Virus record (IMG/VR): IMGVR_UViG_3300033121_001789 | Location: 45,853-109,852 of that record | DNA: 64,000 bases | Origin: a virus | Taxonomy: Duplodnaviria; Caudoviricetes | Strand: one strand, 5' to 3' | In this document: positions 12,145-58,550 of the stretch, piece after piece | How positions within the stretch are numbered: the stretch's first letter is position 1 | Layout: each line of letters opens with the position of its first letter | The notes under the pieces: model-generated | The model's database searches: none | What the model was told of the DNA's origin: nothing | What the model saw: only the letters and a program-made list of their open reading frames with translations | Made by a program: the position numbers and the translations under genes

Positions 12145-15100
12145 ATGAAAAACCTCAGACTATTTGAAGAAATGGATACGGAAATAGGGGCAGAAAAGCC
12201 AAAACAAAAAAATTCCGAGAAAACAAAGACTCCAATTTTAGATGCTATTGGAAAAGATTTAACAAAATTAGCGGCTGAAGAAAAATTAGAGCCAGTACAA
12301 GGGAGAGAAGAAGAGATTCAAGAAGTACTTCTAATATTAGGTAGGAAAACAAAAAATAATCCAGTTATAATTGGTGAGCCAGGAGTTGGTAAAACTGCCA
12401 TAGTTGAGGGAATTGCTCAAATGATAGCTAGCAAAAAGTGTCCTCGTGCAATTCAAGGCAAAAGGATTATATACGTTGATATGGGATCTTTAATTGCTGG
12501 AGCTTCTAAACAAGGTGAATTTGAAATGCGTATTAAATCGCTGTTAGAGGAATTAGAAAAAAATAAAGATATACTATTATTTATAGATGAAATTCATATG
12601 ATGGTCAATCCAAATATGTCAATTGATGCTGCAAACATGTTTAAACCAGCTTTGGCTCGTGGTGATATGAGATTGATTGGAGCTACAACTCTAAATGAAT
12701 TTAGAAATTCAATTGAGAAAGATGGTGCACTTGACAGGAGATTTCAAAAAGTTATTATTGAAGAACCAACAAATGAACAAACATTAGCAATTTTAAATCG
12801 AATTAAAAGTAGATATGAAGACTATCATTTAGTTAAATATACTGATGACGCAATACTAGCATGTGTTAAATTAAGTGGGAAATACATAACTGATAGATTT
12901 TTTCCAGATAAGGCTATCGATTTAATGGATGAGGTTGGATCTAAAGCTAGATTATTAGCTCCGGACAATGAGCCTGAGGAAATAGTTAAGTTGGCAAAAA
13001 AAGTTGACGAATTAAAAGCTGAGATCATGGTAAAGACAAAGGCTCAGGATTACCAAAAAGCTGTAGAATTAAGACAAGTTGAAAAAAGACTATCTGAAGA
13101 ATTAGCAGATAAAAGAAGTAAATTAGATATACCAAAGGTCGAAGTAAATAAAAATGATGTTGCCAAAATAATATCTAAAAAAATAGGAGTACCAGCTGAG
13201 AAAATAACATCTGATGAAGGAGAAAAACTTCTAAAAATGGAAGATGATTTAAAATTACAAATAATAGGACAAGATGAAGCGGTTTCCAAAATATCTAAAT
13301 GCATTCGTAGAAGTCGAGCTGGACTAAGAGACCCAAAAAAACCAGCAGTATTTTTATTCTTAGGATCAACAGGGACAGGTAAATGTCATGGAAGAGGGAC
13401 AAAAATACTAATGTATGATGGATCTATTAAAAATGTTGAAGATATTAAAGTAGGAGATCAATTAATGGGTGACGATTCTAAACCTAGAAATGTTCTTTCA
13501 TTAGCCACAGGCAAAGACAATATTTACAAGATAAAATATAAATCTGGTAGCTTTACTTGCAATTCTGAACATATTTTATCACTAAAAGAAACTGGAAAAT
13601 ATAACATAATCAATATACCATTAAATGAATATTTGAAAAAAAATAAAACATTTAAACACACACACAAATTATGGAGCACTAAAGTTGAATTTGAAGAATC
13701 AAAAATAACAATTGATCCTTATATGATCGGACTTTGGCTAGGAGATGGTGATAAAAATAGAGTTTCTATAACAACTGCTGATTCTGAGATAGTGAACTAT
13801 TTGGAAAATACAGCTAAAAATTATAACCTAAAAGTTTATAAAAACAATTTGAAAAATAACAAGAGTGATGTATATTGTCTAACTGGAGAAAACTGGACAA
13901 ACAATAAAAATGAATTACTAAATGAATTTAGGAATTATGGACTAATAGACAAAAATAAAAATTATACCAAATTCATACCCGATATTTATCTACATAATTC
14001 AATAGAAAATAGGAAAAAATTGTTATCTGGACTAATTGATAGTGATGGATATATTTCCAACAATTGTTATCTAATAACCACAAAATATAGTGAACTAGCT
14101 GATCAAATAGTTTATCTATGCAAATCTCTTGGATATATGGCAACAAAGTCAAAAAAAGATGTTAAGAAATATCCAAAAAATACTTATTATAATATAAACA
14201 TATCTGGAGATTTTGATTTAAATTCTTATATTCTTTTAGATAGGAAAAAACACAAATCAAGAAATCAAAAAAAGAATGTTAATTTATTCTCCTTTGATGT
14301 AGAACATATCGGATATGATGACTACTTTGGATTTGAATTAGATGGCAATCATCTATATTTGTTGCAAGATTTTGTTGTAACACATAATACACATACCGTA
14401 AAAACATTAGCTAAATATTTATTTGGATCTGAAGATGCGATGATAAGATTTGATATGAGTGAGTATGGAGAGAAACATAATGTTTCGAGATTAATTGGCT
14501 CCCCTCCAGGATATGTAGGATATGGTGAAGGAGGACAACTAACCGAGAAAGTTAGAAGAAAGCCATATTGTATAATATTATTAGATGAGTTAGAAAAAGC
14601 TCACCCAGAAGTATTAAATGTATTACTACAAGTTTTTGATGATGGACAATTAACTGATGGACAAGGAAGAAAAGTTAATTTCAAAAATACTATTATAATA
14701 ATGACATCCAATATAGGAAGTTCGGCAGTCAAAGATATGAGAATGCCAATGGGGTTCAATGCATCGAAAATTTCTAGAAACGATAATATGAAAGATCTAA
14801 TCAAAAAAGAATTAAAGAAAAAATTAGCTCCAGAATTTATTAATAGAATCGATGATATAATTATATTCTCACAATTACCTAAAGAAAGTATATACAAAAT
14901 TATTGATATTGAAATAAATAAATTATCAAAAAGAGTTGAAGAAATGGGTTATCATATCAGTATAACTGACAATGTTAGAAAATTAATAATGGATAATGGT
15001 TATGATGAGGAAATGGGGGCTAGACCGCTTAAAAGAGCTATTGAAACACTAATAGAAGATCCTATATCTGAAGAAATTTTAAGAGGTGCTATAAAAGATG

Positions 15101-15231
15101 CCATAAATGTTGACTACGATCCACAAACTAAAAATTTAAGTATTAATGGGAATGTTATTAAAGAATCTTTAAAATTTATAAAGAAATTCAGAATGATAAT
15201 TGAGAAAAAATTTCAGAAATTTAAATACTAA
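12145..15231 (+). CDS. ClpC/ClpE-like Hsp100 AAA+ ATPase lacking the N-domain, intein-containing
   Basis: NBD1 GEPGVGKT/LFIDEIH/ALDRRFQ, UVR-like M-domain, NBD2 GSTGTGK[intein]T, SRLIGSPPGYVGY, LDELEK, PMGF loop, GARPL. Confidence 0.93.
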   Translation: MKNLRLFEEMDTEIGAEKPKQKNSEKTKTPILDAIGKDLTKLAAEEKLEPVQGREEEIQEVLLILGRKTKNNPVIIGEPGVGKTAIVEGIAQMIASKKCPRAIQGKRIIYVDMGSLIAGASKQGEFEMRIKSLLEELEKNKDILLFIDEIHMMVNPNMSIDAANMFKPALARGDMRLIGATTLNEFRNSIEKDGALDRRFQKVIIEEPTNEQTLAILNRIKSRYEDYHLVKYTDDAILACVKLSGKYITDRFFPDKAIDLMDEVGSKARLLAPDNEPEEIVKLAKKVDELKAEIMVKTKAQDYQKAVELRQVEKRLSEELADKRSKLDIPKVEVNKNDVAKIISKKIGVPAEKITSDEGEKLLKMEDDLKLQIIGQDEAVSKISKCIRRSRAGLRDPKKPAVFLFLGSTGTGKCHGRGTKILMYDGSIKNVEDIKVGDQLMGDDSKPRNVLSLATGKDNIYKIKYKSGSFTCNSEHILSLKETGKYNIINIPLNEYLKKNKTFKHTHKLWSTKVEFEESKITIDPYMIGLWLGDGDKNRVSITTADSEIVNYLENTAKNYNLKVYKNNLKNNKSDVYCLTGENWTNNKNELLNEFRNYGLIDKNKNYTKFIPDIYLHNSIENRKKLLSGLIDSDGYISNNCYLITTKYSELADQIVYLCKSLGYMATKSKKDVKKYPKNTYYNINISGDFDLNSYILLDRKKHKSRNQKKNVNLFSFDVEHIGYDDYFGFELDGNHLYLLQDFVVTHNTHTVKTLAKYLFGSEDAMIRFDMSEYGEKHNVSRLIGSPPGYVGYGEGGQLTEKVRRKPYCIILLDELEKAHPEVLNVLLQVFDDGQLTDGQGRKVNFKNTIIIMTSNIGSSAVKDMRMPMGFNASKISRNDNMKDLIKKELKKKLAPEFINRIDDIIIFSQLPKESIYKIIDIEINKLSKRVEEMGYHISITDNVRKLIMDNGYDEEMGARPLKRAIETLIEDPISEEILRGAIKDAINVDYDPQTKNLSINGNVIKESLKFIKKFRMIIEKKFQKFKY
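13384..14388 (+). mobile_element. intein (335 aa) with LAGLIDADG homing endonuclease inserted in Walker A of NBD2
   Basis: GK|CHGRGTKILMYDG ... IGLWLGDG ... LSGLIDSDG ... VVTHN|T. Confidence 0.95.
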
Positions 15232-22206: not shown

Positions 22207-22988
22207 TGAGATATATTAAAGATATTAGAGAGGCTTTTAATCACAAATGGTCAAAAAATGATGATTTGATACTTCCAATATGGAATATATCGGAAAATGA
22301 TTTATTTGATGCATTCTCAGATTTAGAAGACGACTTTGAAGTTGAAATAACATGTGATTTTCTTCTAAAAAGTCCCAAAGGTCATTTATTTAATCTGAAA
22401 GAAGAAAACAAAGAAATAATTGAAAGTTATGCTGCCGCTGGATTTGAACCAATAATTCAAGTAAAAATATCCAGTCAGTATCCATTAGCAACAACCGGTG
22501 ATATGCGTGCAATACAATCAACAATGATGGATTGTATAATGAATTTAGATGGATATTATTTATCACATGTATCTAAGTTTAGAACTTATTTTGAAATTCA
22601 GTTAATGCAAGAGAAAGACGGCAATGAAAAGATAAAATACCACAAAAAATCGAATGTATATTTTTCAAAATATGCCAAACCAATCAAGGATCTTGGTTAT
22701 AAATTTATAATTAATAAAATATTTGAAATAGGTGATAAAAAGTATATAAAATTACCAGAAAAATTTGCTGGACAAAAGGTGTATATAATTTTAATAGAAA
22801 AGGAATATGTAAATCCCATTGATATTAACCTCATAGATAATATCTACGAGGTTAAAAATGTTTTTCAATCCATAGAAAGTGAAATTTCCAATTCTAAGGA
22901 TTTCAAATCCACCAATGGTCAGCTTGAAATAAATAATGAAGATGGGAAAGTATTCATAAGATTTATTCTAAGAATAGTCGAAGAATAA
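22206..22988 (+). CDS. hypothetical protein
   Basis: 260-aa ORF starting MRYIKDIREAF. Confidence 0.7.
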   Translation: MRYIKDIREAFNHKWSKNDDLILPIWNISENDLFDAFSDLEDDFEVEITCDFLLKSPKGHLFNLKEENKEIIESYAAAGFEPIIQVKISSQYPLATTGDMRAIQSTMMDCIMNLDGYYLSHVSKFRTYFEIQLMQEKDGNEKIKYHKKSNVYFSKYAKPIKDLGYKFIINKIFEIGDKKYIKLPEKFAGQKVYIILIEKEYVNPIDINLIDNIYEVKNVFQSIESEISNSKDFKSTNGQLEINNEDGKVFIRFILRIVEE

Positions 22989-22991
22989 AAA

Positions 22992-23672
22992 TTAACACAA
23001 TAATTCTATTTTACCTCTTGAAAATTCCTTGAAAGAGCATTGCTTATTAGTGGAATGATCAATAACTAAATCTTCTTTAATACGATAAGATCTTTTTTTA
23101 TCCGATCGAGAACCCATACCAATTTGGTGTAATCGATTTCTATATTCTTTTTCGTCCCATTTTTCTTGTTCAATAGACTTTAACTTTTCCTCTAACCTTT
23201 TCCAAGCCAATTCTTCATTTTTCAATTGATCTCGAGTATCCTGGCATTTTATTTGAATTCCAGATGGTCTATGTGTCAAGATAACACAACTTGATACCTT
23301 ATTAACATTTTGTCCACCCTTGCCACTACTTCTAGTATATTGTCTATCTACATCATTTCGATTTAAATGAAAGTGTAATTGATTATCCGGATCAATTAAA
23401 GCAACTGTAATAATAGAAGTTTGTGTCCTTCCTCTTTTTTCTGTCGATGGTACTCTTATCCATCTATGTGGACCAATTTCATTTTTAAATAGATTTGAAA
23501 CATTTTTCCCACTCAGTCAAATTGAGGCAAATCCATTCCTATCTTCAATAATATCATATTTTAATCCATGATTTCTTGCAGTTTTAACATAAATATTTCT
23601 AAGATCCTCAACTAACATCTTAGAATCTAATCCGCCCTCAGCGGCTCTAATTTCTATAATGATTTTTTCCAT
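22992..23672 (-). CDS. class I peptide chain release factor, RF1-type (PxT), lacking domain 1, with in-frame TGA at codon 52
   Basis: Single frame from ATG 23672: MEKIIIEIRAAEGGLDS...FASI*LSGK...EIGPHRWIRVPSTEKRGRTQTS...SGKGGQNVNK...CQDTRDQLKN...RSDKKRSY; TGA at 23517-23519. Confidence 0.9.
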
Positions 23673-23708
23673 AATTATTAATTTTTATTTTTGAGCAATA
23701 AATTGTTA

Positions 23709-23759
23709 TTGTGATTGAATAATCACAAACCGCTAATAATTATGTATTCTAAATTTCAT
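23709..23759 (-). promoter_or_regulatory. putative leader peptide (MKFRIHNY-TAG, 23733-23759) followed by an 8-bp hairpin (23709-23728)
   Basis: ATG AAA TTT AGA ATA CAT AAT TAT TAG, then TTGTGATT-ATTC-AATCACAA, upstream of the release factor ATG. Confidence 0.45.
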
Positions 23760-27314: not shown

Positions 27315-27974
27315 ATGATAATTTATAAAATAACAAATTTAATTAATAACAAAGTATATATAGGACAAACAACCGAAAGTCTTCAAAAAAGATGGAAAAG
27401 ACATACATCCGAATACCATGAAAAAAATATGTATATATCAAGAACAATATCTAAATATGGCGAAAAAAATTTTATTATAGAAAAGATATGTGAATGTTAT
27501 TCTTTACAAGAATTAAATGAAAAAGAAATTTTTTATATAAATGAATATGATTCTCTATCACCGAATGGGTACAATCTTGTTGTAGGTGGTAATAATAGTA
27601 AAATGAGCGATGAAACAAAATTAAAAATATCCAATAGCCACAAAAAAAGATATCTAGATGGTAAAGTTATCTCTGAAGAAACTAGGAAAAAATTGTCAGA
27701 ATCACATAAAGGATGGATTCCATCAGAAGAAACTCGTCAAAAATGGAGAGATGCCTTCTCTGGAAAAAAACCATCCGAGAAAACAAGAATCGGTGCCATA
27801 TCACATCATCAAAAAACATATACCTTTGAAAGTCCAGATGGTGAAATAATTACTTTTACAAATATGAAAGATTTTTGTAAAAAAAATAATTTATGCAATT
27901 CTAAATTATGTTTGGTCGCATCTGGTAAAAGAAACCACCATAAAGGATGGAAATTACACAAATCACATTTGTAA
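27315..27974 (+). mobile_element. GIY-YIG homing endonuclease with NUMOD3 repeats
   Basis: MIIYKITNLINNKVYIGQT, SEETRKKLSESHKG. Confidence 0.9.
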
Positions 27975-45623: not shown

Positions 45624-48600
45624 GGTCTAACTGTTGACAATACAATATCGTTATATCTTTTAGAAGTTAGATTAGTATAAGATTCCAATTCTCGTATATC
45701 TAATATTCCACGAATTTCATAGTTTTTCTTATCCCTATAAATAGCACCATATCCATTTTGTGATGTTACCTCAATAACTAAATATGGATCTATATTAGAA
45801 TCAATAGTAAAATTGAAGGAATATAAATTATCAATATACCTACGCTCAACTATTTTTTGAATTGGAACCAAATCAATTTCCTTCCACTCCGTTATATTTA
45901 TCCAATTATTGCTATCAACAAAAGGAGTAATTACTGAATATGTAATCGAATCAAGTCCGGAATATATGTAAAAATTACTATCATACTTTACCACATCAGA
46001 AACATTATATAATGTTCCATAATTCCAATTGGAAATATCTTCATACTTTCGAGGATTATTTGTTTGATTATTATCTATAACTGATTCATAAACCTTATCA
46101 TAATAAATTACTCTATCACCTATCATGTAGTTTTTAAATGGATACCACTCTCGATATATCTCATATGTTCTAATATTTACATCATACATATCTGGCAATG
46201 ATTGTGTTGATGATATATAAAAATCTAAAACGCAGTTATAAACTGTCGATCCATTATTAACAGGCATAAGATATAATTCATTCAGCTTAAATGAAACAGG
46301 TGTAAATTCCTCTGTCGTTTTTATGATCTTCACATCACGAACAATATGACCAATGGATGTTGAGTGTACAAAATCCGCTCTTCCTGTTATATCCAATATC
46401 TTATGTGTTATTGGTATAATATTTTTCTGCAACCAATACTTCAAACCCTGCAATTTTATCTGAACCTCTTCTAAAGAATATGTCAATAGATTATTACCCT
46501 CTCTATCCGTAATTCTATATGTTAGATTAAATAAATTGGTGTCCTCATAATTATCATTTGGGAATACATGTTTAATAAAATCATTATCTGTCCAACCCTC
46601 GACAGTATTATCAAATATATCAGGTATCTCCACTTTAAATAGTTTTCGATAGTTCGAAGATATATAATTTATATTTCTATAATACTCATTTAATTCTAGG
46701 TCATTATACCCAAAATAATTAATAGCGTTAATGATTGATTTATAACTACCAACATAAGGATAAATTAAATTTTTCATCATCATCATTTCCTTTCGTTTAC
46801 GATTCAGATATGTCCAATCAATCCCCTCTTCTTTAATATCATACTCTTTGAAGATATAAACATCATCAGATGATATCAACTTACCGACATTTCCTAATTC
46901 CGTTTCAAATCTTATATCTTCTATCTCAGTTTGTCCATATAAATTAAATCTTCCCAATTCCCTATCCCAAATCTTAAATCGAACAGATAAATATGTTGTG
47001 CTTCCAGATTTTGGATAATCAGATATAATTGTAGTTTCTGAATCAAATCTATCAACAGATTTAAAAAAGTCCACTTTTATTGATTTAAAAAACACCTCTC
47101 TTATTCTAACTAAATATCCATTATTATTAGAGATATACTGTTTTCTATTGTTGGACTCATCTTTTATAAAAATAGCCAAGTGTTGTCCAGGTCTAAATCC
47201 TCTATAATTACCCAAATCATCTGTTATGAAATTGCTACTTGACATTAAACCTAATTTAATAAGTCCATATCTATCATTACCATCTAAAACAGTCTCAAAT
47301 GAAATTTCATTTGTAGAATCTAATAAAGTATTAATTGAGAAGTCAATGTCTTCTTTTAAATAAAGTTGAAGAATACTTCTTATTCCTCCCTCCATTTGTG
47401 AATTAAACCCAATAAATGTTTCTATTGGTTCTGGTACGGATGATGTGTCCTCATCATCATCAAAATAATTTAATCTGTGTCCAATAACCGGGAAAATTGT
47501 TTGTTGATATTCTGGATCATTTACTTTTTCCAAATTTCGATTGGCGTTTCTATTTAGATAAACAGTTGTTAATGGCTTTGGGCCGGTATAAGCCAAAACA
47601 CCATCAGTTGGTAATAAATCTCCTGAAAAATCATATAAGAAAAATTCAGGAACGTTATCTGAAAACCATTTCCAATAAAGAGATGCTTCTGGATATCCTA
47701 CATAATTATATCTCGGTCTTCTAATGAAGTCTTTGGTATGCAACCAAAGATAGTTCCTGTGCGTATAATCAGGTGACAAACTACCATAATTATTCTCCTC
47801 CATATATGAGTATGTAGGTGTTATATTATAAAAAGAGAAATCTACAATCGGAACAACTTCAATAATAGTATTTGTATTTGGTTGTATAGCCCATATGCTA
47901 TTTCTATCAGGGTTATAAATCATTTGTGTTGTTGGATTACCAACAGGTAGTACAATTATTTCAGTAATATTGCCAGTATATCCATCAAATACCCATATTC
48001 CTGGTAAAGTTGGATCTTGATTTGATAGATAAGTATCACCATCATACATATTTATTTGAAGATATCCCCATATACTTGAAAATGAGTGATTAAATAAATA
48101 GGTATCTGTTGAATCATCCAATAGACTAAATTGTGGAGAATCCGTTGATATATTAATACCAGACTGCAAATTATTAAAAATAATATTATTAAATGAAGAT
48201 GATGATATTAATATTGTTGAAACGATACCATATTGAATTTTATTTAGATTTGTTCCCCAAACATAAATTGATTGTGTTATATTATCATATACCATTATAT
48301 CTGATGTCAATCCGGTTATTACATATATGACACTAATTGAAAGACTCATACCATCAATTCTCAATACAGAAGATCCATCTCGACAACTAACATACATATC
48401 ACCATCATACTCATTAAAAATTAAATTATAGGAACCAGAATAAGGTATTGTCGAAATGGTAGATATTAATACTCCAAGATTAAATATCTTAACATTTTGA
48501 TCTGTTGATACATAAATATATCCAGTATTTTTATCATATGCTAAGCTATAGGCGTCTTCGGCTATTGAAATTGAGTTAACAACAATATTAGAAAATGGGT

Positions 48601-56849: not shown

Positions 56850-58550
56850 CTAAAAGTCATTTTTGAAAATCCATTTTTTATTTCCTGCATTGTAGATTCT
56901 ATAAAATCCCCAATCCTCCATAATCTCATGTTCGGTTTTATTCATATCAGCTCCAAGTTTTTTTAATTTTGATTTACGCCAGTTGAATCTATGTTCTCTT
57001 TTCTTATCTATAACATACCAATATCCTGGAGTTGAGGTATGTTTATAGGAAAACCCAAGTGTTTGGTACATATTACCATCGGAGATTAAATTATCAGAAT
57101 AAGTTTCAACCGAAATAGGAGTATATTTTTTAAGAAAATAATTGAATAATTTAGACGATCCACCAACAACAGTTGTAAATGTTTTATTACAAAATCGAGT
57201 TAACTCATAAGATCCTTCCTGATTTTTACCACCCAGTGGTAATCTTAATTTTGAGAAAGTCATAAGCGAAACCAATTCATCTTCAAAAAATAGACCCAAT
57301 CTAATTGATGATTTACAATCTCCCTGAAAATGGTTTTTATCCAAAAAATATTTTGAAGTATTGTAATTAACATCTTTTATTTGACACTTCCTCGCCATAA
57401 TTTTCTTAGATTTTCCTAATTTATTCAAAATAAATGATTTACATATATCTCGTTTAATATTCCAATCGTCCTCCCAAATTGTTAGAAGTTTAATTCCATT
57501 TTTAGTAGCCAATTCTCTCTTCGTTAGATGATAATTCTCATCTTTGAATTTATAGGAATGCCAAAACAACCCGTTAAATTCAAATCCAATTTTTAAATCT
57601 GGAATATAAATATCAATTTCAAATGGTAAAATTGATTTTTTATCATCCATCAAAATCTCACCAGAGTAATTTTCTTTAATAAAATTAAATATCTCAATCT
57701 GTGATATGGAAGCATTTTCTGAAATCGGAAAACAACTTGTGCATATACTGAGATTTGAATTTACTCTATGATAAAATTGAGAAGTTGACATTTTAAAATC
57801 TTTTTCACATTTATTACAATAAAATAATAAGTTAGTTGATATCCTTTTTTCAAATCCCAAAAAAGTAAATTCCAACTCATCTATTTTTTGTAAAATTCTT
57901 TCTTTATAATCATGATAAAAAAAGTCAATTGTTTTTGAATGTATTTCTTTCTTCATCCATGGGTGTTCAACTCCATATTTTCGGAGAGAGGTTTTTTTAT
58001 AGGATTCTTTATATTTATCAATATTTAATTTAAACGAATCAACTCTTTTTTCCACTATTTCTTTCGATTTATTTGGATTATCAACTCCGTAATTTTTCAT
58101 CAGAGTTTGTTTAGACTTATTTCGAATCTCTTCAGAGCACATAGCAGAATTAGCACCATATTTTAATTGATTTGTTTGAATTATCTTATCTTTTACTAAT
58201 TTTGATTCTGCGGGGGTTTTGGTTCCGAATTTCTGTATTGATTTCTCTTCTTTCATCTTTTTAATATTTGGATCGGAGGAAATACATTTAATTGAACAAT
58301 ATTCTCTAAAACCCAAAGTTGAATTTATGAATTTGACAAAATTACCACAATTGGGATTTTTACATTTAGGAATACTATCAAAATTATTGATCACTAAATA
58401 AACTTTTTCTTTGAAAGGTATATCCAACATTTTATTATTTTGACAATAATCTATTATATAATCATATTCTTCTCTGTGATTTTTTAGAAGGTAAGATTCT
58501 TTATTCATTTTACCTGATGGATCTGAAAGATTAAATATTTCTAAATTCAT
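56850..58550 (-). mobile_element. Hef-like putative homing endonuclease (KYGV repeats, Vsr-like domain, C-terminal extension)
   Basis: KFGTKTP/KYGANS/NYGVDNP/KYGVEHP repeats; EIDIYIP..KIGFEFNGLFWHS; IWEDDW; ELTRFC. Confidence 0.8.

Follow-up and report, generated by a model that had tools for sequence, protein, structure and literature searches.

The design in which a release-factor gene carries an early in-frame stop, decoded by a near-cognate tRNA, was predicted before release-factor genes were sequenced; for release factor 2 (RF2) an early in-frame UGA with continuation in the same frame was hypothesised and none was found, the equivalent for release factor 1 (RF1), with UAG, was unknown, and the only viral case cited is the eRF1-type factor of Mimivirus (reviewed by Atkins et al. 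2016, PMC5009743). Expression of the class I release factor of Mimivirus and Megavirus relies on a readthrough and a frameshift, one of each (Jeudy et al. 2012, PMC3521657). This report concerns a gene for an RF1-like factor, interrupted by a single in-frame TGA, in a 64,000-nucleotide (nt) stretch of tailed-phage DNA (Caudoviricetes; hereafter the window), which covers positions 45,853 to 109,852 of the IMG/VR record IMGVR_UViG_3300033121_001789. The TGA is a real, conserved and programmed recoding site in a phage release-factor gene, whose regulatory logic we infer. Al-Shayeb et al. listed release factors of huge phages and did not mention recoding; no published phage release factor with an in-frame stop or a frameshift was found in a literature search that left subscription journals largely outside.

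The closest bacterial system is prfB, the RF2 gene, which is autoregulated by a programmed +1 frameshift at CUU UGA C and with which the locus shares an early stop in a class I release-factor gene, a weak stop context with C as the next base and a full-length product made in competition with termination. It differs in that the window has no slippery CUU, no +1 open reading frame (ORF) and no Shine-Dalgarno (SD)-like element, the ORF continuing in frame 0, and in that its UGA is not an RF1-type codon, so that the loop would be crossed and not closed. The Mimivirus gene likewise encodes a viral termination factor whose translation passes internal stops by recoding; however, that factor is of the eRF1 type (eukaryotic/archaeal) and belongs to a virus of amoeba, whereas the present one is a bacterial RF1 homolog without domain 1, in a tailed phage and with a single putative readthrough. 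PrfH also lacks domain 1 and keeps the GGQ motif, but it works with RtcB on damaged ribosomes, and the factor described here is RF1-like in its scores, fold and PxT tripeptide.

Two phage systems are relevant as well. In phage Q-beta, the leaky UGA at the end of the coat gene is decoded by the normal tRNA-Trp at a few percent to give A1, with neither a suppressor nor a large RNA structure. The gene in the window would likewise be a phage gene with leaky UGA readthrough and no dedicated suppressor, but the Q-beta stop ends a functional protein, whereas termination here leaves just a fragment, and a functional protein requires readthrough. The Jade phages recode TGA in their late genes and encode a TGA suppressor tRNA and a TrpRS, their RF1 gene being in the standard code (Borges et al., bioRxiv 10.1101/2021.08.26.457843). 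This "code-change module" also ties a phage RF1-type factor to the handling of UGA; in contrast, the genome studied here uses the standard code and the factor gene is its only TGA-interrupted gene.

The gene and its in-frame TGA

Translation of the minus strand from 23672 to 22992 yields one frame of 226 codons with one TGA, at codon 52, which is the reading proposed by the first-pass annotation of the window; the segment EIRAAEGG upstream of the stop and the RF1-type PxT and GGQ motifs downstream of it are all located where that annotation had placed them. The features of the gene are the following (window coordinates).

22992..23672, minus strand: RF1-like recoded gene of 226 codons, interrupted only by the in-frame TGA of codon 52; TAA end at 22994-22992
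23520..23672, minus strand: pre-gate segment, codons 1-51; strand, helix, strand and first half of strand 48-55 in the AlphaFold model
23517..23519, minus strand: in-frame TGA, codon 52, the recoding site; context TCA ATT TGA CTG AGT, next base C
22995..23516, minus strand: post-gate segment, codons 53-226, in the same frame; contains the long helix of domain 3/4 as well as PST and GGQ
23442..23450, minus strand: P75-S76-T77, RF1-type PxT codon-reading tripeptide; aligns with P184-V185-T186 of T. thermophilus RF1
23457..23459, minus strand: Ile72 at the position of RF1 Gln181 (third-base reader), from the alignment to 4v4r RF1
23421..23423, minus strand: Gln84 where RF1 has His193, which stacks on the second base, in the alignment to T. 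thermophilus RF1
23310..23318, minus strand: G119-G120-Q121 catalytic motif, invariant in alignment A1 of homologs

The first in-frame ATG, GTG or TTG past the TGA is codon 132, and therefore the ORF list, as had been pointed out, gives only the last 95 amino acids (aa) of the factor: it shows a 95-aa ORF with a TTG start at 22992..23279 and a 51-aa ORF at 23517..23672. All three Trp residues of the gene are encoded by TGG. The +1 frame was said to be shut at once, and the sequence does read T GAC TGA; the window is accordingly free of a prfB-type frameshift, while CUU-stop +1 sites occur in relatives at the next codon. Two further assemblies, X1 and X3, span the whole gene and have no difference inside it (the sole one is at 22944, outside the gene), but both are possibly the DNA's own source sample.

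Conservation of the stop

The evidence for programmed recoding comes from the relatives of the gene. Related loci, 80-odd in number, were collected by two scans of viral contigs and one scan of metagenome contigs (eight loci are from metagenomes), and the clade that contains the window comprised 26 distinct genes. All 26 have a stop in the column of codon 52 (23 TGA and three TAG), the neighbouring codons vary synonymously (TCA, TCT, TCC, TCG or AGT, then ATT, ATC or ATA), and the pairwise synonymous divergence (dS) among the clade genes runs from about 0.7 to more than 1.5. Over 5,821 codons, in-frame stops fall in three alignment columns only, namely this one and two upstream columns with six and four genes. 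For the least saturated pairs, the Nei-Gojobori ratio of nonsynonymous to synonymous divergence (dN/dS, omega) lies between 0.07 and 0.25 for the part upstream of the stop and between 0.05 and 0.25 for the downstream part, and such low values on either side indicate that both halves are translated as protein. A stop kept in diverged homologs, followed by a frame under purifying selection, is the mark of programmed readthrough, and both are found here. Thus, the expectation that the stop would be conserved while its flanks stay under purifying selection is borne out by the homolog alignment (26/26, omega 0.05-0.25 on both sides), and neither an error nor pseudogene decay accounts for the TGA.

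In the codon-52 column, none of the DNA loci carries TGG. The W that many database proteins have here reflects gene calls made with code 4 on short AT-rich contigs; in three cases W-showing proteins could be matched to TGA-bearing DNA (L007 is P0010, and L107 and L108 approximate P0004 and P0014, respectively). Database proteins of 155-170 aa are code 11 calls that restart past the stop. The relatives with a sense codon at codon 52 have C, R, L, S, Q, T or I, and never W. At two loci (L028 and L029, both at 454-648), a partial second copy of the first ~65 codons of the factor was observed ~850 nt upstream of the main gene.

Stop context and RNA structure

Selection is also visible in the context of the stop. 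The codon that follows is CTG in 11 genes, CTA in five, CTC in one, ATT in five, ATA in three and ATG in one, and never TTA, TTG or CTT. Leu after the stop is therefore encoded by CTN in 17 of 17 cases, as compared with 41% CTN (4% CTG) and 59% TTR among the Leu codons elsewhere in the same genes (P ~2e-7, with relatedness ignored). The base after the stop is C at 17 and A at nine of the 26 sites, never T or G, whereas the 62 genuine TGA terminators in the source contig (G000) and in the complete relative G002 are followed by T (28), A (20), G (11) or C (3); C or A thus occurs at 26/26 gate sites against 23/62 terminators (Fisher P 6e-9). In E. coli, C and A following UGA are leaky contexts, a finding reportedly due to Poole and Tate and to Engelberg-Kulka. 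The stop context is selected for weak termination, and the weak context that had been noted for the window's TGA extends to the whole clade, where the base after the stop is limited to C or A.

No conserved RNA pairs were found by RNAalifold from -30 to +90 around the stop, the fold of the window's own sequence at the stop is no better than that of shuffled sequences (z +0.13), and no Rfam family matches in the window. The lack of conserved structure speaks against either a stimulatory hairpin or a SECIS element in the window's clade, and a selenoprotein gene was rejected on these grounds and because the residue of the sense relatives is so variable. A few of these relatives do have Cys at codon 52, as a selenocysteine codon might suggest. 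The chance that the TGA is a selenocysteine codon, a pseudogene lesion or an assembly error is nevertheless practically negligible, given the conserved stop between two halves under purifying selection, the concordance of independent assemblies, the absence of a conserved SECIS-type hairpin after the UGA and the many different residues found in its place.

Since known weak start codons (CTG, ATT, ATA or ATG) often follow the stop, one explanation is that translation terminates at the UGA and re-initiates at the adjacent CTG, ATT or ATA, the two chains then assembling into a split protein. However, such a break would interrupt a beta strand (residues 48-55) halfway along, the codon following the stop can also be CTA or CTC, the sister-clade sites have GCT, ACT or AAG in this place, and the frameshift relatives necessarily produce a single chain, all of which makes a split protein extremely improbable.

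Genetic code and tRNAs

The source contig has 109,852 bp and 28% GC, and its CheckV completeness is 20%, which implies a very large phage; the public runs that contain the stretch are from wastewater and activated sludge. A simple gene call over the whole contig gave 126 genes that cover 92% of it and end in TAA (82), TGA (23) or TAG (21). Under translation table 11, long open frames take up 93-95% of the sequence, and when TGA or TAG was taken as sense only shorter, spurious ORFs were gained. With the same table, no interruption is seen in the window's genes for the tail sheath, major head protein, prohead protease, portal and large terminase. On the contig, 1.08% of the codons are TGG, and Trp is encoded as TGG 363 times. 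When pieces in the same frame were joined across a TGA, the factor gene was the only convincing case on the contig. Genome-wide recoding is excluded for the contig, and codes 4 and 15 were both rejected; the earlier statement that TGA is an ordinary stop elsewhere thus holds (23 of the 126 contig genes end in it).

The many database homologs translated with W might still suggest that UGA is an ordinary sense codon, either through a host with code 4 or 25 or through recoding of the whole phage, in which case there would be no gate. These translations are the code 4 calls on short AT-rich contigs mentioned above, and the reading has only the faintest probability in view of the 23 TGA-ended genes, the 363 TGG codons for Trp (three of them in the factor gene itself), the structural genes intact in table 11, the short spurious ORFs obtained with a sense TGA and the presence of the same device in GC-rich phages that use SD sites. 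As to the host, only four of the 126 contig genes have an SD-like motif upstream, and the scarcity of such motifs together with the AT-richness fits a member of the Bacteroidota, perhaps.

The search for a tRNA(UCA) that the first-pass annotation had proposed was negative at three levels. None is present among the six tRNAs that ARAGORN detected on the contig. None occurs among the 45 tRNAs of G002, a 362-kb relative with 100% CheckV completeness whose factor gene has the same TGA; its tRNAs include Trp(CCA) and one CUA suppressor. In G003, a 318-kb relative that is 96% complete and whose factor gene has a TGA at codon 44 and a TAG at codon 52, no suppressor was found among the 22 ARAGORN tRNAs of the tRNA array, where Trp(CCA) is encoded; this search covered the first 26 kb, the region with every listed Rfam tRNA match (26 in the record). 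G002 and G003 have one full factor gene each. Finally, no tRNA(UCA) lies within 1.5 kb of any of 80 loci.

Several observations on tRNA genes were made along the way. The factor genes of the relatives are very often inside tRNA arrays, and the gene in the window is outside any. CUA-anticodon tRNA genes are found ~0.9-1 kb after factor genes that bear TGA and not TAG (L023, L025, L030 and L033), and the CUA-anticodon (amber suppressor) tRNA gene of G002 (G002:C1:44350-44423) is also near a TGA-bearing factor gene. At the edge of the contig's tRNA cluster, outside the window (G000:C1:4640-4735), one ARAGORN prediction is a tRNA-like gene of 96 nt whose anticodon would have four bases (gttt), and similar odd calls with the anticodons (agac) and (ga) occur in G002.

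These data bear on the idea of a timer, in which a dedicated UGA-reading tRNA, encoded in the unsequenced 80% of the phage genome, by the host or by a co-resident element, opens the gate at a set stage of infection, a role that has been proposed in stop-codon-recoded phages with respect to their late genes. Room for such a tRNA is left by the 20% completeness of the contig, and the huge relatives carry 22-74 tRNAs, some with a CUA suppressor beside the factor gene. Moreover, suppressor tRNAs were found in only ~35-40% of recoded phages by Borges et al. (bioRxiv 10.1101/2021.08.26.457843), who suspected that non-canonical ones escape detection. We consider a timer unlikely, as there is no tRNA(UCA) in the complete relative, in the tRNA array of the 96% complete one or within 1.5 kb of the 80 loci, despite the TGA in the factor genes; furthermore, no other gene on the contig needs UGA suppression, and a general suppressor would extend the 23 genes that end in TGA.

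An RF1-like factor without domain 1

In Pfam searches the protein matches, above both cut-offs, the C-terminal half of PCRF (profile positions 101-194, residues 3-90) and the full RF-1 domain (residues 100-206). Among the NCBIfam models prfA ranks first (185 bits), followed by prfB (128) and prfH (79), all far under the curated cut-offs; the two RF1 models, NF001859 and TIGR00019, reach 185 and 175 bits where 400 and 423 would be required. The prfA alignment covers only positions 105-332 of the 347 in the model, and because it begins at position 105 domain 1 is absent, in agreement with the first-pass annotation. The protein thus has the PxT and GGQ motifs of RF1 in RF1-like domains 2-4, and lacks the four-domain architecture, a score above the curated cut-off and the readers Gln181 and His193, which are replaced by Ile72 and Gln84.

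The structural comparison is consistent with this assignment. The best PDB sequence matches are to RF1 (130 bits, versus 89 for RF2), and the AlphaFold model, with a predicted local distance difference test (pLDDT) score of 85.5, superposes on ribosome-bound RF1 with a template modelling (TM) score of 0.93 and a root-mean-square deviation of 1.6 A; residue 52 is in the middle of the beta strand 48-55. A PrfH identity was rejected on the basis of the TIGR03072 score (78.9 bits, cut-off 166.65), the TM score of 0.64 to 9mor_A and the RF1-type PxT. RtcB (PF01139) has no match on the contig, which represents ~20% of the genome.

The positions of Gln181 and His193 are occupied by I, L or V paired with Q in all 17 members of the subclade. 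In RF1, Gln181 makes a hydrogen bond to the third base (PMC3974865) and is critical to accept G at that position, being lost in the algal mtRF1a, where UAG became sense; at the second position, A is distinguished from G by Thr186 (PMC6821328). Since Ile replaces Gln181, the residue that accepts a third-base G, the window's factor may read UAA as its sole stop. Across the family the tripeptide is of the PxT type, mostly PPT, with SPT in two genes, PST, PDT, PYT, PAT or PPS in single genes and PPN at L048. When the gate codon was tabulated against the decoding residues family-wide, no clean rule emerged.

Recoding devices across the family

Recoding is the norm in this family: 69 of 76 distinct genes are recoded within the first ~55 codons, by readthrough of UGA or UAG or by +1 frameshifts at a CUU-stop, some with a prfB-like SD element. 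A maximum-likelihood tree resolved three clades. In clade A, all 26 genes have a TGA at about codon 35, which corresponds to the Trp of the canonical RF1 "GW" motif, and this coincidence is the best indication that UGA is decoded as Trp. In clade B, 10 of 12 genes are recoded and have CGG AGG GGT CTT followed by TGA (six distinct genes), TAG (two) or TAA (two); the ORF then continues in the +1 frame, and the CTT coincides with that Trp position. Clade C comprises 34 genes including that of the window, with TGA or TAG at codon 52 and sometimes a second TGA at codons 37-44; five of its genes, on at least four separate branches, have instead a +1 site, TGY CTT TAG C, one codon downstream and without an SD-like element. 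The occurrence of frameshift relatives at the adjacent codon therefore points to selection for a device that competes with termination.

The likeness to prfB is most complete in the relatives that have cassettes made of AGGGG, 3 nt and CUU UGA, CUU UAG or CUU UAA. Features of the prfB type are found at L038-L071, and without an SD-like element at L006, L035, L041, L047 and L058. TAG was seen in none of 8,160 bacterial prfB motifs (Prince et al., bioRxiv 10.1101/2024.09.24.614795), in contrast to the CUU UAG C of the phage relatives. With regard to single loci, the prfB-like cassette lies ~100 nt into an RF1-type (PPT) gene in GC-rich phages (L043, L063, L064, L065, L069, L071 and others), and the amber-type site TGY CTT TAG C is located at L006:3140-3165 and also present at L035, L041, L047, L058 and L112. 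An SD-like motif before the start codon of the factor is found in none of the clade C genes and in 20 of 27 in clade A, which fits the idea that hosts without SD initiation favour readthrough or SD-free slippage. As the five frameshift genes of clade C also have no SD-like element ahead of either the +1 site or the start codon, the data suggest that frameshift forms stimulated by an SD element occur only in phages with SD sites.

The perfect prfB-like cassettes (AGGGG, 3 nt, CUU UGA) in front of PPT-type factors raise the question of self-regulation, in which the factor would read UGA, or all three stops, despite its PxT and would end its own synthesis when abundant, just like RF2 at the UGA of prfB. 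The non-canonical pocket (Ile for Gln181 and Gln for His193) and the SPT of two family members point in the same direction. Yet the tripeptide is P-S-T or P-P-T, whose Thr186 discriminates A from G at the second base (PMC6821328), the protein is nearer to RF1 than to RF2 (185 versus 128 bits; TM 0.93), and the loss of Gln181 is expected to narrow and not to widen the codon range, so that self-regulation appears highly improbable.

Another possibility is a fixed throttle, in which the leaky UGA would keep synthesis of a potentially harmful factor down to a few percent of initiation, without a physiologically meaningful response to RF2 levels. It predicts the same signature, namely a conserved stop in a weak context, and the common denominator of all three stops and two mechanisms within the family could be low yield. 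On the other hand, a weak start site would be cheaper, and yet 69 of the 76 genes use a device that competes with termination; such devices were gained or interconverted several times, they have precedents in release-factor genes (prfB and the Mimivirus factor, PMC3521657), and a competition between RF2 and a tRNA is inherently responsive to the RF2 concentration. A fixed throttle is therefore rather unlikely.

A proposed gate controlled by host RF2

The reading we favour, with a probability of about 0.6, is that of a programmed UGA readthrough gate in a phage RF1-like factor without domain 1, where host RF2 would compete with a near-cognate tRNA. At codon 52 the ribosome would meet a UGA whose context, AUU UGA C, is weak; there, host RF2 would terminate and leave a useless 51-residue peptide, or a near-cognate tRNA would decode the UGA and allow synthesis of the full 226-residue factor. 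The decoding tRNA would most likely be tRNA-Trp(CCA), either host- or phage-encoded (many relatives encode one), and by analogy the inserted amino acid would be Trp. Factors of the RF1 type with a PxT tripeptide do not read UGA, and therefore the yield should be inverse to RF2 activity and not to the factor's own abundance. Regulation would then be crossed, through a gate held by host RF2, instead of self-regulation in the manner of prfB, and the gate would act as a sensor of RF2 activity more than as a fixed throttle. Its purpose is probably to top up termination capacity as that of the host declines during a long infection.

Some points weigh against this proposal. The contigs from RNA libraries do not demonstrate transcription or readthrough, and a suppressor tRNA could sit elsewhere in the phage, given that the contig is ~20% of its genome. 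Three clade members use TAG, and the frameshift relatives TGA, TAG or TAA; because of these TAG and TAA gates, the device is not specifically an RF2 sensor family-wide. A fixed throttle would give an identical sequence signature. Lastly, Trp is assigned by analogy, and W is the residue that the sense relatives never have at codon 52.

The leader mini-ORF

Upstream of the gene lies a leader with two features.

23733..23759, minus strand: leader mini-ORF of eight codons (M K F R I H N Y), UAG end at 23735-23733
23670..23744, minus strand: predicted leader helix, in which 23744-23734 pairs with 23680-23670

In the prediction, the mini-ORF's 3' end, as far as the UAG, is base-paired to the start region of the factor, including the AUG, and the fold of 23780-23655 has an energy of -17.7 kcal/mol (z -2.39). 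The paired motif, ACATAAyTAyTAG ... TAATAATTATG, is common to the window, L007, L010, L107 and L108, and the eight-codon mini-ORF that ends in UAG is kept also in L107 and L108. The mini-ORF and the helix may form a second input, dependent on RF1. A tentative and rather doubtful extension of the proposed gate is that a factor specific for UAA, with both the UGA gate and the leader UAG outside its own range, serves as a two-input sensor of the host's termination capacity. If this were true, the phage would deploy a factor for its dominant TAA stops only when host RF1 and RF2 both falter, for example late in infection or when a host defence is aimed at termination, and gating by competition with termination would be the rule for phage-borne class I release factors.

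Other features of the window and its relatives

Three further observations concern other genes. The window contains a 1,028-aa ORF (12145-15231, plus strand) that combines an N-terminal part similar to AAA/ATP-dependent proteases (PHROG 4871, residues 17-415) with a part similar to the large terminase (residues 407-758). Two homing endonucleases, one of the GIY-YIG plus NUMOD3 type and one of the HNH type, are located amid methyltransferase and structural genes, at 27315-27974 (plus strand) and 56850-58550 (minus strand). In G002, a second ORF with an RF-1 domain (L116, G002:C1:51923-52204, minus strand) has an unrelated N-terminal part and an in-frame TAA two codons before the GGQ.

Significance

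The consequences for annotation are immediate, as gene callers truncate such genes to 95-170 aa or, with code 4, silently turn the TGA into Trp. More broadly, this phage family offers natural examples of the predicted early-stop design, comprising UGA readthrough at several positions, UAG readthrough and an amber version of the prfB-type frameshift, and the recoding site in the window is of high interest for both translation and phage biology. Release-factor genes are the textbook case of feedback by recoding, as exemplified by prfB, and here the codon of the gate is one read by the other host factor. That a virus would monitor the termination capacity of its host in this way is an idea that can be tested directly.

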